A DNA stretch of 64,000 nt, from positions 134,134-198,133 of the forward strand of contig CAVVQP010000002.1 of the NCBI GenBank assembly GCA_963750405.1, in the 5' to 3' direction. A model generated the notes under the pieces. The model did not search any database. It saw nothing but the letters and a program-made list of their open reading frames with translations, and was not told where the DNA came from. This document shows, piece by piece, positions 4,882-24,971 of this stretch (its first letter is position 1; the number at the start of each line of letters is the position of its first letter). Source of the DNA: an uncultured Actinomycetota bacterium. GTDB lineage: Bacteria; Actinomycetota; Actinomycetes; Streptosporangiales; Streptosporangiaceae. A program made the translations under genes and the position numbers.

Positions 4882-4938
4882 CCCGGGCGGGTCCTCCCTT
4901 CAGGTGGTGCGCAGGTTGTGGTTTGTCGAAAGCTGAGC

Positions 4939-8444: not shown

Positions 8445-8496
8445 GCACCGCTGTGCCGTTGGTGCTGCTCACACGACACCAACGGCACAGCGGTGC
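8445..8496. repeat. Perfect 20-bp inverted repeat (hairpin, 12-nt loop)
   Basis: GCACCGCTGTGCCGTTGGTG - ctgctcacacga - CACCAACGGCACAGCGGTGC. No T-tract follows on either strand, so I do not call it an intrinsic terminator. Confidence 0.6.
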
Positions 8497-8519
8497 GAGC
8501 GGTCTCTCCCCCGCAAACT

Positions 8520-8760
8520 AGCTAGCAGGCCGGCTGGGCGCGGCGGAGCTGGTGCAGGGTCCAGCTTCGGCCGCCGGGATCGAGCGTCCTGGTCGTGGCG
8601 GCGAAAATCTCGGCGGCCCGGCGGTGCGACATGCGGGTGCGTCCGGTTAGCGGGCAGCGGTCGGCCGCTCGGGAAGCGCGCGCAGCCCGGCCGTCGGGTC
8701 GCGGCTGATCCAGTCCTGGTCAAGCCACTAGTTCACCGCGCTGCGCAGCGTGCGCGTGCT
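8520..8760 (-). pseudogene. Tyrosine-recombinase (phage integrase family) remnant, heavily deleted
   Basis: Minus-strand frames read ...WLDQDWISRDPTAGLRALPERPT... and ...GRSWTLHQLRR..., with stops and frame changes. These resemble the core-binding linker and the catalytic HxLR region of integrases. The assignment is weak and by eye only. Confidence 0.3.
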
Positions 8761-8935
8761 CATTTATCTTAACGCAACGCGTCGGGCCATTTACTGCGAC
8801 AACTCCAGCGGTCGGCGAATCATATTTGCCTCAAGCTGCTATTGACTGTAAAACTGACGCAATGCCGATACGGAAAGTCGCCTTAGGTTCCTACCGCAGT
8901 AAATTCACGGGAAGGTCGGCCAGGACGTCAGTGTC

Positions 8936-10161: not shown

Positions 10162-10349
10162 GGCTCGCAAAAAACGAGCCATCTGACCTGCGAAAACGCG
10201 GCCGTTTGCGAGCACCTCCCGAAAACCCTCACACGATCCACCCAATATGCAGTTCTCAAGATACAAAAACACCCTCTGACCTGCATGCGAGCGCTCCCCG
10301 GCATCTGACCCTCCACCTGAGCGCTCGCACGGCCGAGACGCTGGGAACA
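10162..10349 (-). promoter_or_regulatory. Probable CRISPR leader
   Basis: 188-nt non-coding, relatively A/T-richer stretch between cas2 (minus) and the first repeat. It contains TCTGACC(T/C) three times and a GGCTCG-N7-CGAGCC hairpin abutting the repeat. Confidence 0.5.
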
Positions 10350-10682
10350 TCAGACAATCACCGTGCTCGACACCGGCAGCTTCTCATGATGCCCCAGAAA
10401 CAGGAACCGGCCCGGATCTCCTGCCAGCCCCAGGTCGATAATCATGTCCTCAGACGGCCTGATCCTCACCTCAAGATCACCGCGCAGTAGAACCGCTTCC
10501 TCATCCGACAGGTCACAGATGAAGACCGAGTACTGAATCCGCTCGCCGCAACCCTCGACGCACGCCGCGACACTCCGCAACCGCCGATCCTCGCGAATGT
10601 CGTAAGCAACCAGATAACGCCGCCGCGCCCACGGCAAACCTACCTCGTCCCTCCGTGCTGGCGCGCAACTTCGAGTAGTCAA
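10350..10682 (-). CDS. cas2: CRISPR-associated endoribonuclease Cas2
   Basis: RRYLVAYDIREDRRLRSVAACVEGCGERIQYSVFICDLSDEEAVLLRGDLEVRIRPSEDMIIDLGL matches the Cas2 ferredoxin-fold pattern. The true start is probably the TTG at ~10637 (LPWARRRYLV), preceded by GGAGGG. Confidence 0.85.
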   Translation of the reverse strand: MTTRSCAPARRDEVGLPWARRRYLVAYDIREDRRLRSVAACVEGCGERIQYSVFICDLSDEEAVLLRGDLEVRIRPSEDMIIDLGLAGDPGRFLFLGHHEKLPVSSTVIV

Positions 10683-10919
10683 CTGCGGCTCGCAGGCAGG
10701 AGGGCTTGCCAGGCTGCCGTCCCGATCGCGATCTTGGTCGGCCGTCTTCGCCGGGGAGGTTGGTCCGTGGTTCTTAGGCTGCCGCCGGCCTTCCGCTGGC
10801 GGTGCGCGAGCGTGTTCCTCGTGGCTGGCGGGGCGCTGCTTGCCTAGGTCGGCTCCACTGTCAACGGCATCCTCTCGACGTCGGTCCAGCAGCAGCCTGA
10901 CCGTCAGCGCGAACGTTGG

Positions 10920-11534
10920 CTAGGACTTGGTGGCGACGCCTTCGAAGGTGTAGCCGACGACGCGGGAGCCTTTGAGGTAATAAGTGTCGAGGCGGGTGAG
11001 CTCAAGCCCGGAGGCGCCAATGATCTGGTCGATCGGCCGGTCCAGATGACAGCCGCCAAAGAGCATGCGCTGGAACGGGGTCAGCCTGTGCTGAAGGCGC
11101 GCGACCTTGGCATCCGGCGCCAGGCCATGCTCGGCGAAACGCAACGATCCGCCTGGCCGCAGCACGCGCCGGATCTCCGCGAGCACCCGGGCCGGATCGG
11201 GCACCGTGCACATCGTCCAGGTGCTGAGGACGTGGTCGACGCTGTCGTCCTGCGCCGGGAGCGACCCGGCGTCGAGCCCCGCGAAGTCGATCGGCACCGG
11301 ACACGCGGCGATCCGCCTCGCCGCGATCTTCCGCCCGGCGACGGCCGGGTCGACCACCCTGATCCGGGTCACCGAGGACGGGTAGTGCGGGAGGTTCAGC
11401 CCGGACCCGAAACCGATCTCCAGTACCTCGCCGCCGAGCCCGGCGGCCACCCGCGCCCGCGCCGGCTTGAACTCTGAGCCGCGCATCGCGAAGTCCACTA
11501 GCCGGGGGAGTACTCGGTCTGCGTACCAGCTCAT
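10920..11534 (-). CDS. Class I SAM-dependent methyltransferase
   Basis: MSWYADRVLPRLVDF...VLEIGFGSGLNLPHY (motif I)...LRPGGSLRFAEHG. The start is taken at the internal ATG (11532-11534) of ORF 10920-11735. Confidence 0.85.
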   Translation of the reverse strand: MSWYADRVLPRLVDFAMRGSEFKPARARVAAGLGGEVLEIGFGSGLNLPHYPSSVTRIRVVDPAVAGRKIAARRIAACPVPIDFAGLDAGSLPAQDDSVDHVLSTWTMCTVPDPARVLAEIRRVLRPGGSLRFAEHGLAPDAKVARLQHRLTPFQRMLFGGCHLDRPIDQIIGASGLELTRLDTYYLKGSRVVGYTFEGVATKS

Positions 11535-11867
11535 GCAGGTCAGTCTGGCATGTGGACCCGACCGGCCTGCCCGCCGCGTAGTCCGCAAGAGTGATGCCGG
11601 CCGGGCAGGTTCGCCTGGTCGAATGACGACTCGCTGGCCCTGATCCCTTAGCGTGTTCGGCAATTGCGGGACCGCGCGGGCGGAGAGGATGATGGCCGGT
11701 GGCAGGAAGGCGCCCTGAAATGCGGGTAGGGACATCGATGGCGCGGGAGAACCATCTTTGGGACATTGACGGGCTTGCCGTGGGCGGCAGGACCTGGTGC
11801 CGTGGCTCGGCCCTGGTCGTTCGTGCCCTGGATCACACTCGGGCCGCCCAGATCCTTAACCTGCGAG

Positions 11868-12135
11868 CTATGGGGTGTGCGAGCCGGTGGCGGTGCCTTC
11901 GAAGGTGCAGCCGACGAAGCGGGGGCCCGACAGGTTCAGCCGGCGCTGCGTTCTGGCGACCTTGGCGTAGGGGGACAGCCCATGCTCCGCGAAATGCAGC
12001 GATCCGCCAAGGCGCAGCACCCGCCGGATTTCGGCTAGCGCCGCGCTGGGGTCAGGCACCGTGCACAGAGTCCAGGTGCTGAGCACGTGGTCGACGCTGG
12101 CGTCCCCGGCCGGCAGCGAGCCGGCGTCTAGGCCG
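11868..12135 (-). pseudogene. Truncated paralog of the 10920-11534 methyltransferase
   Basis: VDHVLSTWTLCTVPDPSAALAEIRRVLRLGGSLHFAEHGLSPYAKVARTQRRL then jumps to ...FVGCTFEGTATGS. This is collinear with the intact copy, but the N-terminal half and an internal ~50 aa are missing. Confidence 0.7.
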
Positions 12136-12567
12136 GCGACTCAAGAATGCTTGCGGGCGGTCAGGTGGCTTCTTCCTTGATTGCGTCAAGCGGTTCCGTT
12201 GCCCGGCGCGGCGTGCCTGGGGCGGCGATAGCAGCGCGGTCCTTCCTGCTGCTGTCGCGGGTGGTCCGGGGTGAGCAGCGTGGCCCTCCCCGCTGCTGTT
12301 GCGAGGCGGGACAGGCGGGCTGGCCTCGCCTGGTCAGCGGGTCTCGGGCGCATGGAGCGCGATTTGCTCTAAAGGCCTTGGCGCAGGCAGTAAAAGCGGC
12401 AAGGTTACTGGCCATTCCCCTGTTGACCAGCGAATCAGGCTACCGTACAAGCACCCAGATTCGTGCACCGTATCGGCTGACGCCCAGCTTGCCAGATCGG
12501 GTCACGTTCATGTGTGGCTCACTGCCTATGAGCGTAAGCGATAAACCGCCCGCGGGAAGTGCGGATG

Positions 12568-14136
12568 TCAGGATGGGAGTTCGCCGAGCAGATCGGTCAT
12601 GGACTGGCGGGTTCGCTCGTTCGGCTCGTTGAGCGCGGCGGCGCGCAGGGTTTCGGCGGCCCGCGGTGGCCACTGCGAGAGCGGCCAGCCCCGCAATACC
12701 TTGACCGCCGCGTTGCGCACGCGGATGAATGGGCTGCTCAGCCCGGCCCTGATTAGGTCCCAGCCTTTGCCGGGGAATCGGTCCAGGTCCTGGAGCACGA
12801 ATGACAATGCCTCATCGGCGGCGTATTTCGGGCCCATGAACAGCAGTTCCGCCGGTCCGGTCAGAAGAAGCCGGGGGACAACCTCCGCCATCGCGAACTC
12901 GATGATCTGATCGATCCGCTGATCGTTCGCCGACTTCATGGCCGCGTGCCAGTTCGCGCTGACCGGGTCAGCCTGCACGCGCCGCCAGTGCGCGTCGAAC
13001 GCGTCGATGCCGAGCACGCGCGCCGCCCGGGACGCGTCCCAGAACGTCCTGTTGTCGTCGGACTGGAGGCCGTCGGCCGCCAGGGTACGCCAGCGCGGAC
13101 GGGACGTGAGCTCTTCGCAGCGCGTCAGCGTGCCAGAGCGCTCCTGCTCCGTCCAGTTCCGGTCGTCCCAGCCGTCGTCGCGGCGCAGGAACCCGGCGAT
13201 CTCATCGACGACCAGGAACTGGGCGAGGCTCTCGGCCCGCGCGGAGCTGATGGTCACGTAACGGTCGAGCAGCGCTGGCGCGTCGTCGTAGTCCTCGATG
13301 TCCTGCGCCGGGCCGCCCATGATCAGCGCGCTGATGATGTCGCCGGCCGCGTCGAGCAGTTCGGCGTCCGGGTCACCAGCGGCTAGCCGCTCGCAGAGGC
13401 GCCCGGTCGTGGCGGCGATCCAGGCCAGGTACTCGTACATGACCGTGTTGCGGAAGCCGTGGCGGACGATCCAGTCGCGGATCTCGTCGTCACCGGTGGC
13501 GGCCAGCCGTTCCACCACGTGTATCCGGCCCCAGCCATCGACGCCGCGGGCCAGCGCCCAGAGCACCCGGTCAGGCTCGGATTCGCAGTTGCAGATCGCG
13601 ACCGCGCAGTACAGCGTGAACTCCTCGTGCCGCCCCAGGGTCAGCAGCAGGTCGCGGTCGGCCGGGCCGCCGGCAATGCCGATCAGCGCGATGCCGGCCT
13701 TGACCGGCTCAGCGTGGCGGCCAGTCCCGGCCAGCCGCCGGCCGATCTCTGCGACACCGGACATCGGCAGCGCGGACTTCGCGATGGCGGGGAGCAGTTC
13801 GTCGATCATCGGCAAGGTGACGCTCGAGCGGAGGCGCTCATAGAGCGTGCCGACCTCGATCGGGCCGAAACCGCCCGCGATGCAGCGGCCCATGAGCGTG
13901 ATCAGTTCGGCGACCGCGACTTCAGGCTCGCCAGGCCCGGCGTGATGGCCGAATACGCCATCGCGGGCGCCGGCGACCCAGCGAATCGTGTCATCGTCGG
14001 CCTGGCCCTCGCCCGGCAAGTCCTCTCCGCCCGGCAGCAGCCCGCAGCCCGAAGGGTCGAGCTGGGCGCGCACATGCTCGAGGATCGTGAGCCGATTAGC
14101 CGAATTGGCGTTCGCCCATTCGGGGACAGATTCCAT
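12568..14136 (-). CDS. Hypothetical protein, 522 aa, no family recognised
   Basis: Long intact ORF with normal actinobacterial composition. No signal peptide, TM segments or catalytic motifs that I can name; possibly helical-repeat. Confidence 0.6.
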   Translation of the reverse strand: MESVPEWANANSANRLTILEHVRAQLDPSGCGLLPGGEDLPGEGQADDDTIRWVAGARDGVFGHHAGPGEPEVAVAELITLMGRCIAGGFGPIEVGTLYERLRSSVTLPMIDELLPAIAKSALPMSGVAEIGRRLAGTGRHAEPVKAGIALIGIAGGPADRDLLLTLGRHEEFTLYCAVAICNCESEPDRVLWALARGVDGWGRIHVVERLAATGDDEIRDWIVRHGFRNTVMYEYLAWIAATTGRLCERLAAGDPDAELLDAAGDIISALIMGGPAQDIEDYDDAPALLDRYVTISSARAESLAQFLVVDEIAGFLRRDDGWDDRNWTEQERSGTLTRCEELTSRPRWRTLAADGLQSDDNRTFWDASRAARVLGIDAFDAHWRRVQADPVSANWHAAMKSANDQRIDQIIEFAMAEVVPRLLLTGPAELLFMGPKYAADEALSFVLQDLDRFPGKGWDLIRAGLSSPFIRVRNAAVKVLRGWPLSQWPPRAAETLRAAALNEPNERTRQSMTDLLGELPS

Positions 14137-14160
14137 CTTGTCAGTATCGCGTGCCTAGTA

Positions 14161-15031
14161 CTACAGCCGTAGATCGTGATCTTCAAAGAAGCATGGATTG
14201 CCGCTGGTAGTGGACGCCCGGGCGCGGTGCTGCAGGTGGTGTCGTCGCCAGCGAACCAGCGCATCTGGTGCCGGGCATCGTGCGCTGGGCTGGTAAGGCT
14301 GGCGAGCAGGTGGGCGATCTCGTTGCGGGTCAGCGGGGCCTGGCCGGCGGGGGCCGGGCTGCGGGCGTGCTCGGCGGCGGCGGCGATGGTGAGGAAGGCG
14401 CTGGCGAGCATGGCGAGGGTGACCCACCGGTACCAGGAGGTCCAGCGCCGGACCTGGTGCTCGTCCAGGCCAGCCAGGCCTTTGTCGGCCTGGAAGTTCT
14501 CTTCGACGGTCCACCGGCGTCCGGCAGCCTTCACCAGGGCGGCAAGCGGAACCGGGCGCGGGCGTAGCAGCGGTAGGAGGCCAGCTCCCGGTGCGCGGGG
14601 TGCGGCGGATCAGCAGCCACCGGCACCCGGGCCGGGAGCCGGGATGCTGAGCCAGGCCAGTAGTGGTAGCGGTAGCCCTTGGCGCCCGCACCAGCGGTCA
14701 GGCGCTGCCAGGATCGCGGGGGGAGGCAGGCGGCGAGCTTATCCGCGCGGATCGTTTCCGGCTCCGGCGGGCACCCGGTGGTCGCACGACACGGCCAGCA
14801 CGTGACAGATCTGGGTGTCCTCCAGCCAGGCGCGCAGCGGCCCGTTATTCCCGTAGGCCTCATCAGCGGCGACCCAGCCGAACGGCACCCCGGCCGCGAT
14901 GGCCCGCTCGATCATCCGCTGGGCTAGCTGGGGCTTAGTCGCGAATCCGGCGTCAGCGGGGATCCCGGCGGCCCGGCAGCGAGCCGGGTCACCGGTCCAG
15001 GACCGGGGGATCGGGTCGGCCGCGCGGCGAG
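14161..15031 (-). mobile_element. IS701-family transposase remnant (C-terminal ~2/3), spread over at least 3 frames, 5' part replaced by intron insertion/deletion
   Basis: The pieces are IPRSWTGDPARCRAAGIPADAGFATKPQLAQRMIERAIAAGVPFGWVAADEAYGNNGPLRAWLED, then GAKGYRYHYW, then KAAGRRWTVEENFQADKGLAGLDEHQVRRWTSWYRWVTLAMLASAFL, then RWRRHHLQHRARAS. They lie in ORFs 14739-15206, 14531-14863, 13902-14534 and 14161-14691. No terminal inverted repeats were identified. Confidence 0.7.
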
Positions 15032-16242
15032 GTGCCCGCTGGCGGGTCCTTTTCCGCGCGGCCTCCCGCCGAACCGGACGTGCCCGTTTCCGGGCACCCG
15101 GCTCTTCAGTGACTACTGCGCTGTGACTAGGTTGCGGGCGGTGGCATGGCAGTGTCCGCAGAGGACGAGCGTCTTGCGGCGTCGCCGCTGCATCTCCTCC
15201 GCCCACCGGGGCTGTCCGGGCCTGCCGAGGTCGGCGAGCCTGCGGATGTGGTGGACCTCAACGTCGGTCGTGCTTCCGCAGAGCTCGCACGTGCCGGCCA
15301 GGAAGCGCTGGATGAGTTCCCTGCCGTGTGCCACGGTGCGGCCTGGGTCAGTGACGCGGTCGTCGAGGACCGCGTTCTTCTTGCGGTGCAACGGGATTCC
15401 GCCGAACCGTGCGACCAGTGGTTTCCTGCCATCGCGTTCGACCTTGGCCTCGAAGCAGACGCGCCGCCCGTGCGGGTGTCGATGGCCGTCTTGTGCTTGC
15501 GGGCCATTTTCGCCGCTGTCGAGTGGTGCTTGCCTGCCAGGGTCTTGAGCATGGCGGTCTCCGCTACCCAGCGCAGCCTGGCGAGCCTGCAGGCATCCCA
15601 GGCCAGCAGGTAGTACTGGACGATGCCCCGGTATTCCGCGCCGAAGGCCGCGACTATGGCGTAGTCGTCGGCGTTGAGCAGCGCGGAGCGGCACGCGGGT
15701 TCGCCGCGTTTGAGGTGGGGCGCGCACTTGTCCTTGATCACCGTTCGCGGCACCCGCAGGCTGACGGTGCCGGTGCCGGTGCGGCGGCCGTTCCTGACCC
15801 GGCTGCCGTCGCGGATGGTGATCTCGTAGCCGAGGAACCGGGCCGCGCCGGTGCGGCCGCGGGTGATCAGGGTCTTGTCCCGCGACAGGTCCAGGCGGAG
15901 TTCACCGGCAAGGAACTGGCCCAGGCGGGCCTTGATCTCCTCAGCTTCGGCTCGGGGTCCGGTGAACCCGGGCAGGTGGTCGCCGGCGTAGCGCAGGTAG
16001 CGCAGCCTGCGGTAGCCAGGATCGTCTGGATCCTGGCTGGGCAGGGTGCGCAGGGTCCGGCTCAGCGCCCGGGCCTGTGCCCGGTCACCGAGCCTGCGCG
16101 CTTTGCTGACCTGGCTGGCCAGCTTCCGGTATGCCGGGTTATCCGCCCGGCGCTGGCCCCGCGTGTACTGCGGGATCAGCTCTGTCTCGACAAAACGGTC
16201 CAGCCGGTCCAGGTAAATACTGGACAGGATCGGGGATGCCAC
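15032..16242 (-). mobile_element. Group II intron, 5'-truncated (3' half of RT, maturase X, HNH En domain, ribozyme domains V-VI)
   Basis: ORF 15127-16242 starts inside the RT (SPILSSIYLDRLDRFVE). After a break near 15480, ORF 15113-15727 carries the HNH domain (CELCGSTTDVEVHHIRRL...LCGHCH). Domain V follows the stop. Downstream exon sequence resumes the IS701 transposase frame. The 3' boundary is approximate. Confidence 0.8.
15071..15104 (-). ncRNA. Group II intron domain V
   Basis: The minus strand reads GAGCCGGGTGCCCGGAAACGGGCACGTCCGGTTC. It is 34 nt with an AGC triad, a GAAA tetraloop and a 2-nt bulge (GT) on the 3' strand, which is the canonical DV architecture. Confidence 0.8.
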
Positions 16243-16374
16243 GCCGCCTTATGAACAGTGCGGGGTTATGCGCAGCGCTGGCCTGCTGGCCCTGGTGACA
16301 GCGATGCTGGCGTTCGAGCACTGCGCATAACGCGGAGGATCTGATCAGGCGGTCCGGCATGGTGCCGGGCACGC

Positions 16375-16760
16375 GTGATCGGAGTCGGCGTGATGGCGGC
16401 TATTTCTGCGCTGGTGTCGGGCCTGGATGCGGAGTTACTGTGTCTGGGCTACAAGGACTCGGCGATGGCCTGGTACCGGCGCTGCTGGCGCCGCATGCAG
16501 GAGCGCCAAGCTCAAGAAGCTCACAGCCATCGATCTCGAACGATTCTTCAACGATCTGGCCAAGGTGCTCAGCAAGCGATCGTTGGTCATGATTAAGAGC
16601 ACCTTGCGGTGATCCATTAGGCGAGCGCAAAAGCACGATTTGATCGGGCGGAACGTCGCCCAGTTCGTGGACCTGCGAGACGCGCAGCCTGGCCGACCTT
16701 CGCGAGCCGTGACCCAAGATCAAGCTGCCTTGGTGCTCAAGGCAGCCGCAGGCGATCACA
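16375..16760 (+). pseudogene. Tyrosine recombinase N-terminal (core-binding) fragment with frame break/stop, catalytic domain absent
   Basis: LTAIDLERFFNDLAKVLSKRSLVMIKSTLR (ORF 16427-16612) then DLIGRNVAQFVDLRDAQPGRPSRAVTQDQAALVLKAAAGDH (ORF 16640-16954). This is the typical integrase SAM-like domain pattern. No RHRY catalytic region follows. Confidence 0.55.
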
Positions 16761-17162
16761 GCGCCTATTCAGTCGTTGTAAGGATCGGCAAGTCCACTAA
16801 TGCTGCAACTCATGCGGCGACAGACCTAGGAGAAATCGCCTGTGGCAACAAGGTGCGCAGCGCGAGGAGAACCGATCAAAGTCAGCACCGATCTGGCGGA
16901 CGCTTCCTGCATTGCCTGCCGAAGCCATCTCGGCATCGGCCAAGACGACGCTGACACCAAAACGACTAGCGGCGATCTTTGTCCTAGCAAGAGACTGCGG
17001 ACAGGGATCACGGAAGATCACGCCGCTCAGGGAGGCTGTCGGTCGGCTCGGGTTCTTCGAAGGTCAGGCGCCGGCGGGTCAGCGACCTTGCGCCATGTGC
17101 ACTGGATCGGACGGCTTTATCGGGCTCATCCCTAGAAGACGCGCCGCACCGGGAGTTAACTG

Positions 17163-17432
17163 ATGGGTAATAACGAGGAGCTATTTGGGTATTCCCCTGC
17201 AGAAGATGCGTTCCCCCGGCAGCGAGAGGACATGATGATGATCGCTCAGGCACATTGGCGGTCACGCGGGGCAGACTTAGGCGACCTTAGCCTAGGTGCC
17301 GGGTATGATGGCGACGACGAGAGCGGCGCCGCACAGAACATCACCCCAGTTTCTTGTCGCCTTGGCGGAGCTATAGACGGATCGTCGCGCAAATATGACC
17401 TCATATCGCTTACTGTCTGGCTCCTGCCGTGA
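17163..17432 (+). CDS. Small acidic hypothetical protein (89 aa), possible first gene of the low-GC operon
   Basis: Its stop overlaps the GTG start of the Tmk-like gene (GTGA at 17429-17432). I see no homology, and coding status is uncertain. Confidence 0.3.
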   Translation: MGNNEELFGYSPAEDAFPRQREDMMMIAQAHWRSRGADLGDLSLGAGYDGDDESGAAQNITPVSCRLGGAIDGSSRKYDLISLTVWLLP

Positions 17433-18094
17433 TCGAGGAGTTTCCTACTCCATGTTCGGGTTTCCTGGCCGCGATTGACGGCCCTGTCGGCGTGGGCAAG
17501 ACCACCGTCGCGGCCTTAGTTCGTGCTAGCTTCGACGACCTTGGCCTTGCCGTATTAGTGACGAGCCAGCCGTCGGACTCGGCTCTGGGGACACTTGCCC
17601 GAGCTTCCACTTACGACCTGCACGGGTTACCGCTGAGCCTCCTCATGGCGGCTGACCGGTATCACCACCAAGATCATGTTATTGTCCCGGCGCTGCGGGC
17701 TGGCCAAGTCGTGCTGTGCGACCGGTACGTGACCACGGCGCTTGTCCTTGATCAAATGGACGGCGGAGATCCCGAGTACATCTGGAGTATTTACCGGTAC
17801 TTGCACTGGGCGGATCTGGCGGTCATCCTCACTGGTGATCCGACTGTCTGCCGGGCGCGCGCCGCTGACCGTGGAATCTACAGCCGCTTCCATGAGGGTG
17901 GCGCTAATCAGGGAAAGCGCGAAGCGGCGCTTTACGCTCGCGCAGCCGACTTGTTGGCTGGCCATGGATATCCCGTACAGGTAATCGACATCGGCGACCG
18001 TTCCGCTGCTCAGGTTAGCGAGGCCGTGGTCCGGCTAATCCGAGACCGCATGACGACCATCTCGAACACGGCGATAAAGGAGGACCTGCGATGA
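17429..18094 (+). CDS. Thymidylate-kinase-like (Tmk family) nucleotide kinase
   Basis: It has a P-loop IDGPVGVGKTT, LLMAADRYHH, a DRY motif (CDRYVTT) and a lid-like RARAADRGIYSRFHEGG. The 221-aa ORF overlaps the next gene by ATGA. Confidence 0.8.
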   Translation: MIEEFPTPCSGFLAAIDGPVGVGKTTVAALVRASFDDLGLAVLVTSQPSDSALGTLARASTYDLHGLPLSLLMAADRYHHQDHVIVPALRAGQVVLCDRYVTTALVLDQMDGGDPEYIWSIYRYLHWADLAVILTGDPTVCRARAADRGIYSRFHEGGANQGKREAALYARAADLLAGHGYPVQVIDIGDRSAAQVSEAVVRLIRDRMTTISNTAIKEDLR

Positions 18095-19404
18095 GGGTCG
18101 CATTGCTATATCCGGAGGTTTACGACATGGCGCGTTTCAAGGACAAGCGCAAAGAATTCCCTCCATTTGGCGTTCTGTACCTGGCGGCCGTCATCGAACT
18201 GGCCGGCCACGAAGTTGCGATCAAGGCTGTGACGCCCTCGCGTACCAGCTTGGATCTGAGTGGTTACGAGGCAGTCGGTTTAAGCCTGGCATCGTCGGCG
18301 ACATACGGCCTGATGCTCCGGGCCCGCCGTGAATCTTTATTCGCCGATAATGCCTTGATCATGGTTGGTGGCGTGCATTGTAATTTCTACCCGGAGTCCA
18401 GCCTGATCGACTTCGGCGCGGATCTGGCCGCCGACGGCGAGTCGGAGGAGACGATCTTAGAGATCCTTGAGCACGGAGCCCGACGTGAGTTTAGCGGCAT
18501 CCCTGGAATCTTGTGGCGTAGTCCGGATAAAGAGGTTCACCGCAATCCCGCTCGACCGCTACTGCGTGACATCGACCAGCTCCCGCTCCCGGCCCGTCAC
18601 CTTCTACCCGCCGAGCACGTAGTGCTGACCGACCGGTTGGCGGGCACCGATCTTCGAATGGCCCATGTCATGTTCAGCCGCGGCTGCCCATTTCCGTGCA
18701 GCTTCTGCGCGGCCGGTCAAACCCGCATCCAGTACCGGAGCGGGGTATCCGCGCAACTCGAACTTGAGCACCTCATCAGCGCCTACGGCATCGAGGGCTT
18801 TGCGATCGTCGACGACAACTTCATCGTCAACAAGACTAAGGTCGGCGATATCTGCGACCACATCACGGGCCTTGGCCTACGGTGGTCGGCGTTGTCGCGA
18901 GTCGACACCATCGATTCTCCGCTATTAGCCAAGATGGCAGGCTCCGGCTGCATCGAAGTCAAGTACGGGATGGAGTCCGGCAGCGAGCGATTGCTGAAGG
19001 CCATGCGGAAAAACACCAGCCGGGACCAGATCCGCCGCGCGGTTCACGCGACCGTTGCCGCGGGCATCGCGGCGAAAGTCTTTGTCATCCACGGATTCCC
19101 GGGCGAGAACGACCAGACAACCGATGACACCATCAGCTTGCTTGCCGAGCTTGCAGCGGACCTGGCCAGGGTGTCACTATTCCGTTTCGTGCCGCTGCCC
19201 GGTACGCAGGTGTACGCCAGGCCAGACGCATATGGGGTGACCGGCACCCATCTGCAGCCGGACTGGGACGGCGACTGGTCAGCCTTCCACATTCACCACA
19301 ATACACACCGATGGTGGGGAACCGATGCACAGTGGGCGGAGGTCGAATCCTCTTACCAGCGGCTTCGTGACTTCGTCGAGACGACCTGGGGGCCGCAAGG
19401 CTGA
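18091..19404 (+). CDS. B12-binding-domain radical SAM protein
   Basis: The N-terminal Rossmann-like segment (RVALLYPE...PPFGVLYLAAVIELAGHEVAI...IMVGGVH) is followed by the CxxxCxxC cluster SRGCPFPCSFCAAG and a TIM-barrel-type remainder (VDDNF...GMESGS...). Confidence 0.85.
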   Translation: MRVALLYPEVYDMARFKDKRKEFPPFGVLYLAAVIELAGHEVAIKAVTPSRTSLDLSGYEAVGLSLASSATYGLMLRARRESLFADNALIMVGGVHCNFYPESSLIDFGADLAADGESEETILEILEHGARREFSGIPGILWRSPDKEVHRNPARPLLRDIDQLPLPARHLLPAEHVVLTDRLAGTDLRMAHVMFSRGCPFPCSFCAAGQTRIQYRSGVSAQLELEHLISAYGIEGFAIVDDNFIVNKTKVGDICDHITGLGLRWSALSRVDTIDSPLLAKMAGSGCIEVKYGMESGSERLLKAMRKNTSRDQIRRAVHATVAAGIAAKVFVIHGFPGENDQTTDDTISLLAELAADLARVSLFRFVPLPGTQVYARPDAYGVTGTHLQPDWDGDWSAFHIHHNTHRWWGTDAQWAEVESSYQRLRDFVETTWGPQG

Positions 19405-19504
19405 TCATGCTGTCCGCTCGGCCAGGAACCATGTCCGCCATTGACACGCATCGGCTAGCCTGCCACGGGTGGCATCCCTGATCTCGATCGCACCCGGTCC
19501 GGCG

Positions 19505-20650
19505 ATGCTCATGCTGGATGAGCCGGCTGCCTCACGAACCTGGAACCGGATTCTCGTGCGGCAAGGCCTCGCCGACGCCTATCGCCTCAGCACCGCACCG
19601 CAGGTCGCCGACGCCGTCCTCGGACTGCACGCGGCACGACTGCCGTCCCCGTATGCGATCGTCGCAGCCCGGACGGGCGATCCTGCAGTGCCCACCAGCC
19701 TGTTCACTACCTCTGTACGGGAGTCATTACTGACCGTCCGGTGCATGCGTAAGACACTCCACGCGCTGCCGCTACCTCTCGCTGCCATCGCTCACGCTGC
19801 CACCCTCAAATTCCGTGATCGAGATGCCCGCCGCGCGGTGCTCAACGCCGGTCATGCCATGGCTACCGTCGAACGCAAGATCGGCCATCTGTGCGAACTC
19901 CTGCGCGACGGCCCGCTTTCACACCGTGTCATCGAATCGCACCTAGCCTCCCGCAGGGATGTCCAAGTCGGCCGGCTGGCCATCAAAGTCGCATGGGAGC
20001 GCGGGACTATCGCCTATGTCAACTCCACCACTTTCTGGAATCGGGAGGCCAGAACATTCGCCCTGACCTCATCCGCCTATCCCACGCTTGACCTTTCCGT
20101 TACCCGCGACCAGGCTGTGGCTAAACTGGTCACCGCTTACTTCGACCGATATGGACCGGCGACGGTTCGGGATGCCACCTGGTGGTCTGGACTGCCCGCG
20201 ACCGAGATCATGACGGCCCTGCTGACATGCGACCGCCCCGTCATCGCGGTCGCTACTCCATGGAGCGATGTTCCCTGCCTCATGTTCGCCGATCAAACGG
20301 AGAGCAGCGCCAGCAAGGCAACAACTACGGGAGTTCAGTTCCTCGCTCACGAGGACACCGCCCTCAAGGCCTACTTCCAGACTCGTCGGCGCTATCTGGG
20401 AGACCTGCCACAGCAGCAGGTCTTCAATCAGATTGGGGAGGCTCTGCCCACGATCATCATCGACGGCGGGGTGGCTGGCACCTGGTGGTGGAACGCTCGC
20501 ACCGCGAGCGTCGAGTTCGCTCTGGTGCCGGGTGAAGTCCGCCGACCAGTCCGGAGCGAGGTGAAGATCCGCGCCGCATCTCTGACCGAGACGCTGCGTG
20601 CAGCATGGACATCGGACCGGCCATCACGGCACACCGACCAGCGCCGATAA
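19505..20650 (+). CDS. Winged-helix HTH_42 (DUF1006; AlkZ/YcaQ-family) protein, catalytic motif apparently absent
   Basis: Family-typical segments are RQGL...V...LGL.A., RCMRKTLHALP, YFDRYGPATVRDATWWSGL and WWWN at the C-terminus. The start is taken at the ATG at 19505 within ORF 19469-20650. Confidence 0.7.
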   Translation: MLMLDEPAASRTWNRILVRQGLADAYRLSTAPQVADAVLGLHAARLPSPYAIVAARTGDPAVPTSLFTTSVRESLLTVRCMRKTLHALPLPLAAIAHAATLKFRDRDARRAVLNAGHAMATVERKIGHLCELLRDGPLSHRVIESHLASRRDVQVGRLAIKVAWERGTIAYVNSTTFWNREARTFALTSSAYPTLDLSVTRDQAVAKLVTAYFDRYGPATVRDATWWSGLPATEIMTALLTCDRPVIAVATPWSDVPCLMFADQTESSASKATTTGVQFLAHEDTALKAYFQTRRRYLGDLPQQQVFNQIGEALPTIIIDGGVAGTWWWNARTASVEFALVPGEVRRPVRSEVKIRAASLTETLRAAWTSDRPSRHTDQRR

Positions 20651-20748
20651 CTCAAACCGCGCCTCCCCAATAGCGCAATGGCAGATGCGGCTGACTGCTA
20701 GCGTCACAACTTCTACCTGACTCACCGAGCACGCGAGGTGACTACCGG

Positions 20749-21066
20749 ATGGAACCATTGAGCAGGGACACTTCCCTGCCCGGAATCCAAGATTATGTTG
20801 CCAGAATGGAGGCGGAACGCGGGCTGGACAAGCAGGACCTGGCGTCCCAGTGCCTCAAGCTCGGTGAAGAAGTCGGCGAGTTGTACCGGGCCGTCCGCAA
20901 ACTGCAAGGACAGCCCCAGGACCCGGGCGGGCGGACAGCCGATGTGGGAGACGAAGCCGTCGATGCGCTTATCCTTCTGATGTCGATCGTTAACCGATGC
21001 GGAATCAACCTGGAAGACGCCTTCCGCACGAAGGAAGCCCGCAACGAAACCCGCGTGTGGGTCTAG
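20749..21066 (+). CDS. MazG-like all-alpha nucleoside-triphosphate pyrophosphohydrolase
   Basis: LKLGEEVGELYRAVRK...VGDEAVDALILLMSIVNRCGINLEDAFRTKEARNETR carries the EExxE and ExxD metal-binding helices typical of small MazG/DR2231-type proteins. Confidence 0.7.
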   Translation: MEPLSRDTSLPGIQDYVARMEAERGLDKQDLASQCLKLGEEVGELYRAVRKLQGQPQDPGGRTADVGDEAVDALILLMSIVNRCGINLEDAFRTKEARNETRVWV

Positions 21067-21167
21067 GTAGCGTCGCCGGCCGATTACGGGCCGAGCCTGC
21101 GGGGGATAGCGTTGACAGGCGCGGTCGCCACGGGGGCTGGGGGGCTCAGTTGAGTTTCGCGCGGAAA

Positions 21168-23270
21168 ATGGCACAGTTCCCGGTCGGGCGCTGGACCAAG
21201 TGGCTCGTGCTCGGATTCTGGCTGGTCGTGATCGTCGTCGCGGGCCCGCTGGCCGGCAAGCTGACCGGTGCCGAGCAGAACCAGGCGAGAGCCTGGCTGC
21301 CCGCCAATGCCGAGTCGACGAAGGTCCTGGACGTGCAGTCACGCTTCCAGTCGCCCAACATCTATCCAGGGGTCATTGTCTACGCGCGGGCCTCGGGCCT
21401 GACCGCGGCCGACCGGGCCAAGGGCGCCGCCGACGCGCGAGAGTTCGCCCAGGTGCCTGGCATCCTCCCGCACCGGATAACAGGTCCGATCCTGTCGGCG
21501 GACGGCAAGGCAATGGAGACAGTGGTCCAGGTCAATCTGGGCCGCCAGGGATTCAACCGGGCGGCCACGGTCGCCAAGTCGGCGCTCGCGATCGCCCGGA
21601 TGGGGTCGAACGGGATGAGCGTTCACCTCACCGGGCCACTCGGCAACGCGGCCGACAACAACGCCGTCTTCAGCGGCATCGACAGCACGCTGCTGATCGC
21701 GGCCCTGGCGGTGGTCATCATCATCTTGCTGATCACCTACCGGAGCCCGGTGCTGTGGCTGCTGCCGGTGGTCTGCTCAGCCGTGTCGCTGATCGCCGCC
21801 CAGGCCCTGATCTACCTGCTCGCCGCCCACGCCGGCCTGACCGTCAACGCGCAAAGCGCGGGCATTCTCGATGTCCTGGTGTTCGGTGCCAGCACGGACT
21901 ACGCGCTCCTGATCGTCGCGCGTTACCGCGAGGAGTTGCGCCGCCACGACCGCCGTAGCGCGGCCATGGCCGAGGCGCTGCTGCGGGCAGGCCCGGCGGT
22001 CATCGCGAGCGCGTCCACCGTGATCATCGCGCTGCTGACCCTGCTCGTGGCGGAGCTCCAGTCCACCAAGGATCTCGGTCCGGTGCTGGCCCTCGGCGTC
22101 GCGGTGAGCCTGCTGGCGATGCTGACGCTGCTGCCGGCGCTGCTCGCGGCGTTCCCGAGGGGAGTGTTCTGGCCCTACCGGCCTGCCTATGGCTCGGCCG
22201 AGCCGACCACCCGAGGCCTCTGGGCGCGGGTTGGCTGGAGCATCGCCACCCGGCCCCGCGTCGTGTGGGTCACGGCCGCCGTGGTCCTCGGCGTGATGGC
22301 GCTCGGGCTGATCGGGCTGAAGGCCAGTGGCCTGACCAATGCGCAGTCCTTTCGCGGCCGGCCCGACTCCGTGGTCGGGGAGTCGGTGCTGGCCAGGCAC
22401 TTCCCCGCCGGAGCGGGTCAGCCCGTCATCGTGATCGGCAGGGCGGGCGCGGCGGCCCGGGTGCGCTCCGCGTTCGCCTCGACCCGGGGGATCGCGGCCG
22501 TGACGCCGCCGGTGACCAGGGCCGGCTTTGTCTACCTGCAGGGGACGCTGACCTCGCCGCCAGATAGCCAGGCGGCCTACACCACGATCGACCGGGCACG
22601 GTCCGCCGTGCACGCCGTGCCCGGTGCCGACGCCAAGGTGGGCGGTACCACGGCCATCAACCTGGACGTGATGCGAGCGTCCGCGCACGACCGCACGATC
22701 ATCATCCCGCTGATCCTGCTCGTGGTGCTCGTGATCCTCGGGCTGCTGTTGCGGTCGCTGGTCGCGTCAGTAGTGCTGACCGCGACGGTTGTCCTGTCGT
22801 TCGCCGCCGCGCTCGGCGTGAGTTCCCTGTTCTTTGACCACGTCTTCGGCTTCGGCGGCGCGGATACCGCCTTCCCGCTGTTCGTCTTCGTGTTCCTCGT
22901 CGCGCTCGGCATCGACTACAACATCTTCCTGATGACCCGGGTGCGGGAGGAAGCGGTCAGGCGGGACGCCAGGCACGGCGCCATCGTCGGCCTCGCCGCC
23001 ACCGGAGGAGTGATCACCTCGGCCGGATTCGTGCTGGCCGGCACGTTCGCCGTCCTCGCGACCATCCCGTCCACGTTCCTGACCGAATTGGGCTTCGCGG
23101 TCGCGTTCGGCATCCTGCTCGACACGATCGTCGTCCGTTCGGTTCTCGTCACTGCGCTCAACCTGGACCTGGGCCACCGGATGTGGTGGCCGAGCAAGCT
23201 GGCGCGCAAGTCAGATCCGGCACCTGAGCAGCTCAGCCGGGAACGCGCGGGGGCCCTGAGCCAGCGGTGA
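21168..23270 (+). CDS. MMPL-family (RND superfamily) membrane transporter
   Basis: 700 aa from the ATG at 21168. It shows two six-TM bundles separated by soluble domains. Typical strings include WLVLGFWLVVIVVAGPLAGKL, FGASTDYALLIVARYREEL and GIDYNIFLMTRVREE. Confidence 0.85.
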   Translation: MAQFPVGRWTKWLVLGFWLVVIVVAGPLAGKLTGAEQNQARAWLPANAESTKVLDVQSRFQSPNIYPGVIVYARASGLTAADRAKGAADAREFAQVPGILPHRITGPILSADGKAMETVVQVNLGRQGFNRAATVAKSALAIARMGSNGMSVHLTGPLGNAADNNAVFSGIDSTLLIAALAVVIIILLITYRSPVLWLLPVVCSAVSLIAAQALIYLLAAHAGLTVNAQSAGILDVLVFGASTDYALLIVARYREELRRHDRRSAAMAEALLRAGPAVIASASTVIIALLTLLVAELQSTKDLGPVLALGVAVSLLAMLTLLPALLAAFPRGVFWPYRPAYGSAEPTTRGLWARVGWSIATRPRVVWVTAAVVLGVMALGLIGLKASGLTNAQSFRGRPDSVVGESVLARHFPAGAGQPVIVIGRAGAAARVRSAFASTRGIAAVTPPVTRAGFVYLQGTLTSPPDSQAAYTTIDRARSAVHAVPGADAKVGGTTAINLDVMRASAHDRTIIIPLILLVVLVILGLLLRSLVASVVLTATVVLSFAAALGVSSLFFDHVFGFGGADTAFPLFVFVFLVALGIDYNIFLMTRVREEAVRRDARHGAIVGLAATGGVITSAGFVLAGTFAVLATIPSTFLTELGFAVAFGILLDTIVVRSVLVTALNLDLGHRMWWPSKLARKSDPAPEQLSRERAGALSQR

Positions 23271-23310: not shown

Positions 23311-23658
23311 GTGACCATCGCAAGCTTGCAGCGGCAGTACAGGCAGTTCGTGGCCGAACGGGAGTGGGAGCAGTTCCAGAGCCCTAAAAACCTGGTCATG
23401 GCGCTGGCCGGGGAGACCGGCGAGCTCACCGAGATCTTCCAGTGGCTCACCGAGGAGCAGTCATCGGCTGTCATGGGCGACGAATCCCGCGCGGCCCAGG
23501 TGCGCGACGAACTCGCCGACGTCTTCGCCTACCTGATCAGGCTCGCCGACGTCCTCGGCGTAGACCTCGAGCAGGCCTTCGCCGAGAAGATGATCAAGAA
23601 CGCTCACAGGTACCCGATCGAGACGGCCCGAGGCAGTGCAGCTAAAGCAGTCCCTTGA
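23311..23658 (+). CDS. MazG-like nucleotide pyrophosphohydrolase (dCTPase/DCTPP1-like small type)
   Basis: FVAEREWEQFQSPKNLVMALAGETGELTEIFQW...VRDELADVFAYLIRLADVLGVDLEQAFAEKMIKNAHRYP is the characteristic sequence of this family. Confidence 0.8.
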   Translation: MTIASLQRQYRQFVAEREWEQFQSPKNLVMALAGETGELTEIFQWLTEEQSSAVMGDESRAAQVRDELADVFAYLIRLADVLGVDLEQAFAEKMIKNAHRYPIETARGSAAKAVP

Positions 23659-23747
23659 CCTGCGTGTGTCGGCAGGAGCGGGGTGACTGACAGTCGGGCG
23701 CGCAAGAATGTCCGGTGACCCCCGGCCGTTCGAGGAGCCCGACAGAC

Positions 23748-24971
23748 ATGAAGATCCTGCACACCAGCGACTGGCATGTTGGCAAGGTGCTCAAGGGCCG
23801 CGACCGGCACGACGAGCAGACGGCGGTGCTCGGCAGCATCGTCAGCACGGCCCGCGGCGAGGATGTCGACCTCGTGCTGGTGGCCGGCGACCTGTTCGAG
23901 ACCTCGGCGCCGACCGCGAAGTCGCAGGGGCTGGTCATGCGGACGCTGCTCGCGCTGCGCGAGGACGGCCGCCAGGTCGTGGTCATCGCGGGGAACCACG
24001 ACAACGCCGGCCTTATCGATTCCGTCTACCGGCCCGTGCTCGGGCAACTCGGGCTGACCGTGCTCGGCCTGCCTAAACGCCCGCAGTCGGGGGGCACCAC
24101 CGCGTTCACCCTCCGAAATGGCGAAGAGGTCAGGGTCGCGGCCTTGCCTTTCTTGTCACACCGGTTCGCCGTGCGGGCTGCCGAGATCGTGCTGCATGAG
24201 TTCGCTGAGCACACGCTCGACTACTCGCAGCGGGTTTCCGAGATCGTGCGGGCACTGACCGCCGGGTTCACCGACGACGCCGTGAACATAGTGATGGCGC
24301 ACGCCACGCTGCTCGGCGGGCGGCGCGGCGGCGGCGAGCGCGGCGTCCAGACCAGCCTGGATTACGAGCTGTCGGCCAGCATGTTCCCGGCCGCCGCGCA
24401 CTACGCCGCGCTCGGTCACCTGCACCGGCAGCAGGAGATCCCCGGCCCGTGCCCGATCTTCTACTCGGGATCGCCGCTGCCGGTCGACTTCGGCGAGGAG
24501 TCCAACGAGCCGGTCGTGCTGATCGTGTCGGCGGCGCCCGGCGTGCGGGCAGACGCCAGGCCGGTGCCGGTGGCCGGTGCCCGCCGGCTGCGGACGCTGC
24601 GGGGCACGCTCGACCAGGTGATCGCCGAGGCCGAGGCGCTCCAGGGCGGCGACGCGGAGGACGCATACCTGCGGGTGATCCTCGCCGAGCCCGCCCGCGC
24701 CGGGCTCGGCGACCTGGTCAGGGAGAAACTGCCGAACACGCTCGAGGTGCTGCTCGACGACGCGCACCGGCCGCGGCCTGGCGGGCGCGATGGCGGGGGA
24801 GGCGACCGGCCGAGCCGGGTGGGGAGGAGCCCGGCGCAGCTGTTCGGGGATTATCTAGGCGAGGAAGGCGTGGCCGACCCGCGGATCACGGCGATGTTCT
24901 CCCAGCTGCTCGACCAGGTGACCAGCGAGCCGGCCGACCTGGCCGCCGCCGACCTGGCGGGAGGTGCCTGA
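23748..24971 (+). CDS. sbcD: SbcD/Mre11-family nuclease
   Basis: It has MKILHTSDWHVG, LVAGDLFE, IAGNHD, MAHATL and GHLH calcineurin-like phosphoesterase motifs. Its stop overlaps the sbcC ATG (TGATG). Confidence 0.85.
   Translation: MKILHTSDWHVGKVLKGRDRHDEQTAVLGSIVSTARGEDVDLVLVAGDLFETSAPTAKSQGLVMRTLLALREDGRQVVVIAGNHDNAGLIDSVYRPVLGQLGLTVLGLPKRPQSGGTTAFTLRNGEEVRVAALPFLSHRFAVRAAEIVLHEFAEHTLDYSQRVSEIVRALTAGFTDDAVNIVMAHATLLGGRRGGGERGVQTSLDYELSASMFPAAAHYAALGHLHRQQEIPGPCPIFYSGSPLPVDFGEESNEPVVLIVSAAPGVRADARPVPVAGARRLRTLRGTLDQVIAEAEALQGGDAEDAYLRVILAEPARAGLGDLVREKLPNTLEVLLDDAHRPRPGGRDGGGGDRPSRVGRSPAQLFGDYLGEEGVADPRITAMFSQLLDQVTSEPADLAAADLAGGA

Follow-up and report, generated by a model that had tools for sequence, protein, structure and literature searches.

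The window analysed here is a 64,000-nucleotide stretch of contig CAVVQP010000002.1 (positions 134,134 to 198,133; assembly GCA_963750405.1) from an uncultured actinomycete of the family Streptosporangiaceae. Positions 17429-21066 of the window were shown to be occupied by a copy of a horizontally mobile cassette in which four roles are filled, here by a Tmk-like nucleoside-monophosphate (NMP) kinase, a radical S-adenosylmethionine (SAM) enzyme with an N-terminal B12-binding-type domain, a winged-helix protein of the HTH_42 fold and a MazG-like nucleoside triphosphate (NTP) pyrophosphohydrolase (Table 1). An earlier note, made from the sequence alone, had described a low-G+C operon of five genes, and all five open reading frames (ORFs) are indeed found on one strand where it had placed them. 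The stop codon of the first, small ORF overlaps the GTG start of the kinase gene in a GTGA that can be read directly in the sequence (17429-17432), and an ATGA (18091-18094) holds both the end of the kinase ORF, at 18094, and the ATG of the radical SAM gene, at 18091. The gap upstream of the HTH_42 gene measures 100 nt to the ATG at 19505 or 64 nt to the GTG at 19469, and 98 nt precede the MazG-like gene. The four domain assignments made in the note were borne out by comparison with Pfam and the Protein Data Bank (PDB).

The small ORF matched no Pfam, NCBIfam or PADLOC family, and tblastn found no counterpart in any of the 62 orthologous loci described below, so that it was rejected as a fifth component and the five-gene system of the earlier note is reduced to four. 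Its G+C content at third codon positions (GC3), 0.59, is the lowest in the block, and it is a doubtful gene, probably a non-coding leader or promoter region lying outside the cassette. The low G+C content claimed for the block held in direction and was overstated in degree: the block has 61.6% G+C, the window as a whole 68.2%. Of the 60-nt lines in the block, just 12% have 53% G+C or less, the note having given 50-53%. Lower values occur in only 3 of 301 segments of the same size, and GC3 is 0.68-0.74 in the cassette genes versus 0.85-0.91 in the neighbouring MMPL, second MazG-like and SbcD genes. The block thus deviates from its surroundings in both measures and is compositionally foreign.

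Table 1. Features of the window and of related loci. Locus numbers (L) are those of the present survey; positions are those of the sequence named in the first column.
Sequence	Feature	Position	Strand	Basis or remark
Window	Small ORF, 89 aa	17163-17432	+	ORF reading; outside cassette
Window	Tmk-like P-loop NMP kinase, 221 aa	17429-18094	+	PF02223
Window	Class-B radical SAM protein with N-terminal B12-binding-type domain, 437 aa (predicted)	18091-19404	+	PF04055 and PF02310
Window	HTH_42 (AlkZ/YcaQ-fold) winged-helix protein	19469 (GTG) or 19505 (ATG)-20650	+	PF06224
Window	All-alpha MazG-like NTP pyrophosphohydrolase, 105 aa	20749-21066	+	Motifs and match to 2q73
Window	Start region of MMPL ORF, mechanical start at 20997	20997-21170		Overlaps end of MazG-like gene by 70 nt
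Window	Second MazG-like gene	23311-23658		PF12643, 6.5e-13
Window	SbcD-like nuclease gene	23715-24971		Directly downstream of second MazG-like gene
Window	Phage tail sheath, AAA ATPase and WHD-domain genes	3781-7939	-	
Window	CRISPR-like array	9160-10166		Period ~74 nt, ~13.6 copies, repeat ~37 nt
Window	DDE_5 (IS701-type) fragment with interrupting intron	14739-16242	-	
Window	DDE_5 (IS701-type) transposase fragment	14739-15206	-	
Window	Group II intron, domains V-VI	15010-15106	-	Rfam RF00029
Window	Lowest-G+C kilobase	51001-52000		58.8% G+C
Window	Second group II intron match, D1-D4	52589-52811	+	
Phage SF3 (NC_028952; L074)	Type-B cassette, four overlapping genes	5061-8434		~600 bp from integrase
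Phage SF3	gp35, AlkA-like			Annotated as hypothetical protein; missed by Pfam
Phage SF3	gp36, B12-type radical SAM			
Phage SF3	gp37, thymidylate kinase			
Phage SF3	gp38, NUDIX hydrolase			
L044 (Pseudomonadota)	Piwi-domain Argonaute (833 aa) and C-terminal-TIR protein	6030-9799		Immediately upstream of radical SAM-HTH_42
L077	HTH_31/DUF5753 regulator and partner	7091-8751		Just upstream of cassette
L079	HTH_31/DUF5753 regulator and partner	7332-8716		Just upstream of cassette
L086	HTH_31/DUF5753 regulator and partner	6280-7345		Just upstream of cassette
L079	HMUDK_hel-domain protein, PCMT methyltransferase, radical SAM/SPASM protein	14535-17956		Downstream of type-A cassette
L034	Cassette variant without HTH_42	8626-12505		
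L035 (Kribbella)	Rearranged cassette variant	7843-14616		
L083	Broken Tmk-like gene	9258-10004		ORFs of 96 and 150 aa

The cassette has the radical SAM gene as its signature, and the product of that gene is assigned by sequence and structural model to the class-B enzymes with a B12-binding-type domain. Its matches to PF04055 (1.8e-15, 58 bits) and PF02310 (3.9e-09, 36.8 bits) both lie above the gathering scores. The CxxxCxxC motif (C199/C203/C206) is invariant, as are C255, C287 and a WWG at 408-410, and HIHHN at 400-404 is nearly so. The AlphaFold2 model (pLDDT 88.4) has a compact class-B architecture, for which Foldseek returned MgmA (9ccb), TsrM, AprD4, OxsB and TokK as the nearest structures, with E-values of 1e-16 or below for MgmA, TsrM, OxsB (3.8e-18), TokK and CysS and a TM-score of 0.73 for AprD4. 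Homologs form 959 clusters at E<=1e-10, the top 120 of which, at 69-89% identity, are spread across many actinomycete genera. The enzyme falls outside every characterised family, ApyD, PhpK, HpnJ, BchE, MgmA and Fom3-like proteins included: all 30 NCBIfam matches are far below the curated cut-offs, the best being ApyD with 180.4 bits versus 750, and among the PADLOC models it matched PDC-M51A only and none for viperins.

The HTH_42 protein matched PF06224 with 102.6 bits (4.5e-29), and its AlphaFold2 model (pLDDT 85.2) has the three winged-helix domains and the C-terminal beta-barrel of the fold; the closest structures were AlkZ (5uuj, 8.5e-16, TM-score 0.75) and DNA-bound AlkX (9zd6, TM-score 0.69). 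The AlkZ/YcaQ family is defined by the motif (Q/H)xQ, QxD or Hx(S/T)(D/E), the residues of which are essential (PMC9040887, PMC13303869). In a profile alignment of 20 orthologs, an invariant GLH(A/S)AR falls on the GVQAQ of AlkZ, and H-(A/S)-A-R is likewise present in HTH_42 proteins of Lachnospiraceae, Pedobacter and Kribbella that are only 27-38% identical. The assignment in the earlier note to HTH_42, the family that contains the AlkZ/YcaQ glycosylases, is upheld for the fold, and the catalytic motif that defines those glycosylases is missing. Since that motif is replaced, we assign the protein, by sequence comparison, to a new clade of the HTH_42 fold and not to the AlkZ/YcaQ-type glycosylases. 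With the clades AZL, AZL2 and YQL it shares the fold, MRxTLH, YGPA and the GxVVGxW of the C-terminal beta-barrel, but it differs from them in the H-A/S-A-R motif and in its obligate linkage to a radical SAM gene instead of genotoxin biosynthetic gene clusters (BGCs) or the conserved YQL neighbourhood. A survey of the superfamily in Streptomyces required the catalytic motif (PMC9040887), so that the H-A-A-R clade would have been excluded from it. The clade has invariant motifs of its own, VRCMRKTLH, LAHEDxALKAY and FNQIGEALPT, which may mark a different active site, and the invariant acidic residues E283/D284, E165 and E312 could supply one.

The kinase scored 67.3 bits against PF02223 (1.9e-18; gathering score 27) and remains below the cut-off of the dTMP kinase model TIGR00041 (67.6 versus 83.25); its best PDB match is the Tmk of T. 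thermophilus (1.8e-09). Aligned with that enzyme, it keeps the GVGKTT P-loop, both DR motifs (AADR and CDRY) and an arginine-rich LID, RARAADR, while the contacts to thymine and deoxyribose are altered (LLF to LLM, S..AYQ to T..LVLDQ, TREPGG to TSQPSD). The Pfam scan of the kinase yielded only Thymidylate_kin and generic AAA matches and no 5-hydroxymethyluracil (5-hmU) DNA-kinase (HMUDK) domain. The MazG-like protein scored just below the gathering score of PF03819 (7e-4, 20.2 versus 22) and also matched PF01503. Because the Pfam score is sub-threshold, its membership in the MazG superfamily rests on motifs and on a PDB match, namely to the integron iMazG 2q73 (5e-05), with which the metal-binding motifs EEVGE and DEAVD (EExxE and DxxD) are in register.

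Scanning one genome per species, we obtained 62 loci with an ortholog of the radical SAM protein at 47-91% identity, 53 of them not cut by contig ends, and counted neighbours by tblastn of the window proteins. An HTH_42 gene adjoins the radical SAM gene at 59 of the 62 loci (51 of the 53 uncut ones), an NTP pyrophosphatase gene at 50 (45 uncut) and an NMP kinase gene at 41 (35 uncut), and all four roles occur together at 36 (34 uncut). In the window copy none of the four is missing, and their order is the commonest one. We refer to this arrangement (a radical SAM ortholog of at least 47% identity and an adjacent H-A-A-R HTH_42 gene, accompanied by genes for an NMP kinase and for a MazG or NUDIX protein) as type A. 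Most hosts belong to a wide range of actinomycete genera, the others being Acidobacteriota, a Pseudomonadota metagenome-assembled genome (MAG), a MAG labelled Saccharibacteria, Lachnospiraceae and Pedobacter. The G+C content of the cassette is below that of its flanks at 43 of 54 loci (by 4.7 points on average), also where the host is itself low in G+C (31% versus 44% in Lachnospiraceae, 34.5% versus 48.6% in Pedobacter). The earlier note had made failure to recur a ground for rejecting its proposal; the gene set does occur together in unrelated genomes. That these are chance neighbours, or genes that share mobility and no function, could be argued from the abundance of the Tmk, MazG, NUDIX and HTH_42 families in actinomycetes. 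However, order and tight spacing are kept at over 50 loci, representing at least five phyla, across the whole range of radical SAM identities, genes overlap, and genes are swapped with preservation of role both here and in the second type described below, and this explanation is effectively refuted by the recurrence.

The swaps emerged from unbiased clustering of the neighbourhood ORFs. A Tmk-like gene is present at 37 of the 62 loci and a Cytidylate_kin2 kinase in its stead at four; Frankia and Saccharopolyspora, for example, have a cytidylate-kinase-like P-loop kinase (PF13189, 5e-12) in the place of the Tmk of the window. Similarly, a MazG-like gene is found at 38 loci and a NUDIX hydrolase in the same position at 12, as in a Streptomyces/Micromonosporaceae clade (PF00293, 8.6e-17). 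In the low-G+C versions of Lachnospiraceae and Pedobacter, the radical SAM gene overlaps the HTH_42 gene. Given these replacements at the kinase and pyrophosphatase positions and a two-gene version in Pedobacter, the core of the cassette is the radical SAM-HTH_42 pair, and the pyrophosphatase and kinase are frequent accessories, replaceable by unrelated genes.

A second arrangement, type B, was found in the temperate Streptomyces phage SF3, on Streptomyces plasmids (L075, L076) and at L084-L096. Its order is an AlkA-like gene, a B12-type radical SAM gene (~500 aa), a Tmk gene and a NUDIX or MazG-like gene. In SF3 it forms an overlapping four-gene operon, and on one of the plasmids a MazG-like gene replaces the NUDIX gene. 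Eight further proviral contigs carry it complete and in the same order, and numerous Streptomyces chromosomes have it as well, with more than 400 clusters in the gp35 family. The profile of gp35 homologs matches AlkA-type HhH-GPD 3-methyladenine DNA glycosylases (A. fulgidus 2jhj, 3.6e-06; E. coli 1diz, 3.8e-04), with an invariant DLAVR on the catalytic DDLGVR and the catalytic Asp aligned, and some UniRef and JGI records of the family carry the name AlkA-type glycosylase as well. A divergent HTH_42 protein was considered for gp35 and rejected (hhalign probability 0.1%).

The kinases of the two types are 35-44% identical (104-137 bits, versus ~41 bits to housekeeping Tmk), and their NUDIX proteins 40-43%. 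The closest relatives of the window kinase are those of type-B cassettes and not housekeeping Tmk, and the sequences place both in one dedicated Tmk-like clade. Types A and B thus share accessory genes, have diverged in the radical SAM protein and differ in the fourth slot, which is taken by folds unrelated to each other. In both, a glycosylase-fold gene adjoins the radical SAM gene; the AlkZ and AlkA folds are both known for recognising alkylated purines in DNA. No type-A ortholog was found in the phage, plasmid and IMG/VR collections. Both types occur in strain ITFR-21, A on the chromosome (L081, CP134605) and B on plasmid pSITFR-21c (L075, CP134608), so the two are not mutually exclusive; they may differ in specificity.

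The observations so far describe a radical SAM enzyme coupled to a DNA-glycosylase-fold protein, usually with a pyrophosphatase and often with a dedicated NMP kinase alongside. Two known logics meet in such a set. A dNTPase, a dNMP modifier and a dNMP kinase form the classical route to non-canonical phage DNA bases (T4, and MazZ/PurZ of S-2L), and MutT with MutM/MutY pairs a pool sanitiser with glycosylases so that a specific base is excluded from DNA. The cassette resembles the former in its pyrophosphatase-modifier-kinase triad and the latter (the GO system) in its pool pyrophosphatase and glycosylase fold, but its parts are unrelated to theirs by descent and it unites both logics in one operon around a radical SAM gene. 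From this combination we propose, with a probability of about 0.4, that the cassette serves to make and police a modified purine deoxynucleotide, probably one that is C-methylated, for use in genetic conflict. Counted in support are the recurrence, the displacement of genes with retention of role, the carriage of type B by mobile elements, the nucleotide-kinase scaffold, and the G+C content and conflict-related neighbours.

By this proposal, the pyrophosphatase would convert a (d)NTP into the (d)NMP and would also cap the level of the modified triphosphate; the radical SAM enzyme would modify the mononucleotide; and the dedicated kinase would re-phosphorylate a product that housekeeping kinases would refuse. 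Host enzymes would complete the triphosphate, polymerases would incorporate it into replicating DNA, and the glycosylase-fold protein would recognise the modified base there. In type B this reader would be an AlkA-like protein with its catalytic Asp kept; in type A it would be an AlkZ-fold protein without the canonical motif, suited to base binding or to a different chemistry. The module might serve against phages or in competition between elements, with fast-replicating invader DNA as its main victim.

Such a role would be akin to that of the prokaryotic viperins (pVips), which are linked to nucleotide kinases. Like them, the cassette pairs a radical SAM protein with a Tmk/Cmk-type kinase on mobile islands and could harm invaders through a modified nucleotide, and the type-B kinase matches the PADLOC model VakA, a name that may stand for viperin-associated kinase. 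Unlike pVips, the cassette has no viperin, its radical SAM protein being of class B with a B12-type domain, and it includes as integral parts a glycosylase-fold protein and an NTP pyrophosphatase that are missing from pVip systems.

The same genes could act after replication, on the DNA itself: the glycosylase-fold protein would present or activate a base, the radical SAM enzyme would modify the polymer, the kinase would phosphorylate a group on the DNA and the pyrophosphatase would tune the pools. A comparable trio, also on mobile elements, operates in phage thymidine hypermodification, namely a DNA-acting P-loop kinase, a protein with the HhH glycosylase fold but no glycosylase function (aGPT-Pplase) and a radical SAM isomerase (PMC8989533). 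The overlapping genes of the minimal core, a radical SAM enzyme with an HTH_42 protein of DNA-binding fold, also fit, as do the presence of a glycosylase-fold gene beside the radical SAM gene in both types and the retention of the whole DNA-binding scaffold in type-A HTH_42 proteins that lack the glycosylase motif. However, the cassette kinase is of the Tmk family, with LID and DR motifs, and is not a 5-HMUDK; the glycosylase fold is HTH_42 or AlkA-type and not aGPT-Pplase; the radical SAM protein is B12-type and not SPL-like; and, unlike the phage pathways, the cassette is mostly chromosomal in bacteria and contains neither a dUMP hydroxymethylase nor another source of a reactive precursor base. 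HTH_42 enzymes act without base flipping (PMC13303869), which would make it harder to present a base to a second enzyme, and the NTP pyrophosphatase in 45 of the 53 uncut loci points to the nucleotide pool. We consider modification at the level of the polymer unlikely.

Oxetanocin A biosynthesis has a tiny plasmid-borne cluster in which the B12-type radical SAM enzyme OxsB acts on phosphorylated deoxynucleotides (dAMP/dADP/dATP) beside the phosphohydrolase OxsA. This parallel, with OxsB as a structural neighbour of the cassette enzyme, raises the alternative that the cassette is a mini-cluster for a genotoxic nucleoside-analogue antibiotic, with the glycosylase-fold protein as self-resistance of the producer; AlkZ-like proteins are indeed enriched in BGCs in that capacity (PMC9040887). 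One variant without HTH_42 (L034) has a gene for a major facilitator superfamily (MFS) transporter followed by the radical SAM gene, with a MazG-like gene and one for an HD-domain phosphohydrolase on the opposite strand, an arrangement that resembles OxsA/OxsB plus an exporter. The cassettes at large, however, have no conserved exporter, 5'-nucleotidase or pathway regulator, number only two to four genes, and are also carried by a temperate phage and proviruses; the census of flanking genes revealed no BGC-type genes, and the HTH_42 clade lacks the catalytic motif of the BGC-linked AZL proteins. OxsB itself has 730 aa with extra domains and no specific sequence relation to the cassette enzyme, OxsA is an HD enzyme and not a MazG or NUDIX protein, and the oxetanocin cluster has neither a kinase nor a glycosylase-fold protein. 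An antibiotic pathway is thus quite unlikely.

It is also conceivable that nothing new is made and that the cassette controls damage by alkylated purine nucleotides, the pyrophosphatase sanitising alkylated dNTPs, the glycosylase-fold protein handling the lesion in DNA, and the radical SAM enzyme and kinase repairing or recycling the mononucleotide. The two-tier logic would be that of MutT and MutM/MutY, AlkZ and AlkA are both alkylpurine-specific families, and soil actinomycetes meet alkylating natural products. We nevertheless regard this as very unlikely. Regulation by DNA damage was rejected, as neither a LexA box nor the RecA-NDp motif of RecA-independent damage promoters was found upstream of the cassette in 30 loci; an Rfam scan likewise found no B12 or other riboswitch near it, and a promoter and terminator scan was uninformative. 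Patchy spread, foreign composition and carriage by phages and plasmids would be unusual for housekeeping repair, the excision motif is absent from type-A HTH_42 proteins, and we know of no radical SAM enzyme that repairs nucleotides.

Neither the curated families, nor the PADLOC systems, nor full-text searches of a literature library yielded a description of the cassette, and the literature searches likewise gave none of the PADLOC candidates PDC-M51 and PDC-S07. The earlier note knew of no named system with this composition, and no named defence system matched, PADLOC giving only weak matches to the candidate PDC-M51: the window radical SAM protein to A (1.4e-10, 38.6 bits, radical SAM core only) and the kinase to B (1.4e-3, 16.4 bits). 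The radical SAM protein of SF3 did not match PDC-M51A. Cassette NUDIX genes matched the other candidate, PDC-S07. The distant B12-type radical SAM loci L063-L073 were examined as true relatives of PDC-M51 and dismissed; they have no linkage to a kinase, glycosylase or pyrophosphatase gene, and L072 lies beside a glycosyltransferase gene.

Several findings weigh against the proposal that a modified nucleotide is made in the pool and policed in DNA. The kinase is absent from 18 of the 53 uncut loci, and the Pedobacter and Bryobacteraceae versions consist of the radical SAM-HTH_42 pair alone; a pool-level pathway is therefore not obligatory. The type-A HTH_42 protein lacks the residues essential for base excision, and the window copy may therefore not police by excision. 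This loss and the two-gene versions are the points that the proposal explains least well. Between types A and B, the identity of the radical SAM proteins is only ~30%, which does not exceed the level seen with unrelated B12-type radical SAM proteins, and the two types may therefore not share chemistry. The modelled class-B fold does not prove methylation either, since AprD4, with a B12-type domain but no cobalamin, is a dehydratase, and OxsB contracts a ring. The order of reactions is pure inference. As for the surroundings, most genes directly beside the cassette encode XRE/HTH_31 regulators or are ordinary ones, known defence genes adjoin the cassette in a minority of loci only, and the copies at L081 and L082 stand alone between housekeeping genes.

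Each part of the cassette is a member of a known superfamily, and in its overall logic the cassette is like nucleotide-modifying systems already described; there is a real, if minor, chance that its chemistry and biology are categorically new. In the boldest form, the B12-type radical SAM enzyme would write an unusual (e.g. C-methylated) base into DNA, via the pool or the polymer, and a rewired glycosylase-fold partner would read or process it; this would be the first such cellular system. It would add a new class to the known forms of immunity or warfare between elements, one based on nucleotides and disseminated by phages, plasmids and genomic islands, a possibility we hold only tentatively and do not expect to be true. 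If the proposed logic is right, the cassette would provide a non-canonical nucleotide or DNA base by a widespread and wholly uncharacterised route, represented by about a thousand clusters of type-A radical SAM proteins and several hundred type-B cassettes in Streptomyces. It would extend class-B radical SAM enzymology by a new reaction on nucleotides, for which OxsB would be the sole precedent, and would offer a candidate for defence or conflict in antibiotic-producing actinomycetes with a phage-borne counterpart. The H-A-A-R proteins form a fourth HTH_42 clade. Modified nucleotides of this kind have in the past been sources of antiviral chain terminators and DNA-labelling tools, and both are possible applications here. 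As an example of method, role-preserving replacement at three of the four positions defines the system ahead of biochemistry.

A census of 149 flanking ORFs consisted mainly of XRE/HTH_31 regulators, often with DUF5753, and no consistent defence-island or BGC context was found among them. The defence islands that the earlier note had asked about are thus not a regular feature of these loci, and a possible role in defence is suggested by context. Individual neighbours are suggestive. Type-A cassettes were seen in a prophage-like element beside a serine recombinase (L078), near a tyrosine integrase and excisionase (L077), and beside a Type ISP restriction-modification system and Fic (L079). The Pseudomonadota copy follows directly on genes for an Argonaute and a TIR protein (L044), another cassette lies beside a TIR-HAD fusion and a HigBA-like pair (L053), and one locus has Gabija in its neighbourhood. 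Among type-B loci, L087 lies beside Septu-like ATPase/HNH genes and L084/85 beside RHS toxins.

HTH_31/DUF5753 regulators with DUF6879 or DUF397 partners stand just upstream of cassettes of both types (Table 1); they may be regulators dedicated to the cassette, or they may belong to the mobile unit. The type-A cassette of L079 is followed downstream by a gene for a protein with an HMUDK_hel domain, the helical domain of 5-hmU DNA kinases, and by methyltransferase and radical SAM/SPASM genes.

Individual loci depart from the usual layout. In Kribbella (L035) the order is HTH_42, an AAA_26/CbiA-type P-loop protein, the radical SAM protein, a 417-aa protein and an ATP-grasp ligase. In one metagenomic copy (L083) the Tmk-like gene is broken, which suggests decay of the kinase in an otherwise intact cassette. 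The JGI metagenome protein P0181 (444 aa) joins AlkZ-like and MazG-like parts in one ORF across the usual spacer; this single case may reflect a genuine fusion or the loss of a stop codon. Apparent radical SAM-HTH_42 fusions at several loci (ORFs of 628-753 aa) were discarded as artefacts: each radical SAM gene has its own stop codon, and the long ORFs arise because the HTH_42 frame stays open upstream in high-G+C DNA.

Downstream of the block, the true start of the MMPL gene probably lies beyond the overlap with the MazG-like gene, near the 'MAQFPVGRWTKW' segment. The second MazG-like gene, which scores better against its family than the cassette gene, has a host-like GC3 of 0.85. Both it and the MMPL gene were rejected as cassette members, as tblastn showed no linkage at other loci.

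The surroundings of the block within the window are a mosaic of mobile-element debris. The earlier note had listed an integrase fragment, an IS701 remnant, a dead group II intron and a CRISPR array nearby; the first has no Pfam match and the other three were recovered. The DDE_5 (IS701-type) fragment is interrupted by the degenerate intron, whose maturase and HNH parts lie in different frames, and the CRISPR-like array has the repeat GCCTCAATGGAGCCGCTCCCGAAGGAGCGGAGCGAC. The second group II intron match adjoins the kilobase of lowest G+C content in the window. The tail sheath, ATPase and WHD-domain genes near the start of the window look like an extracellular contractile injection system or a phage-tail-like cluster.

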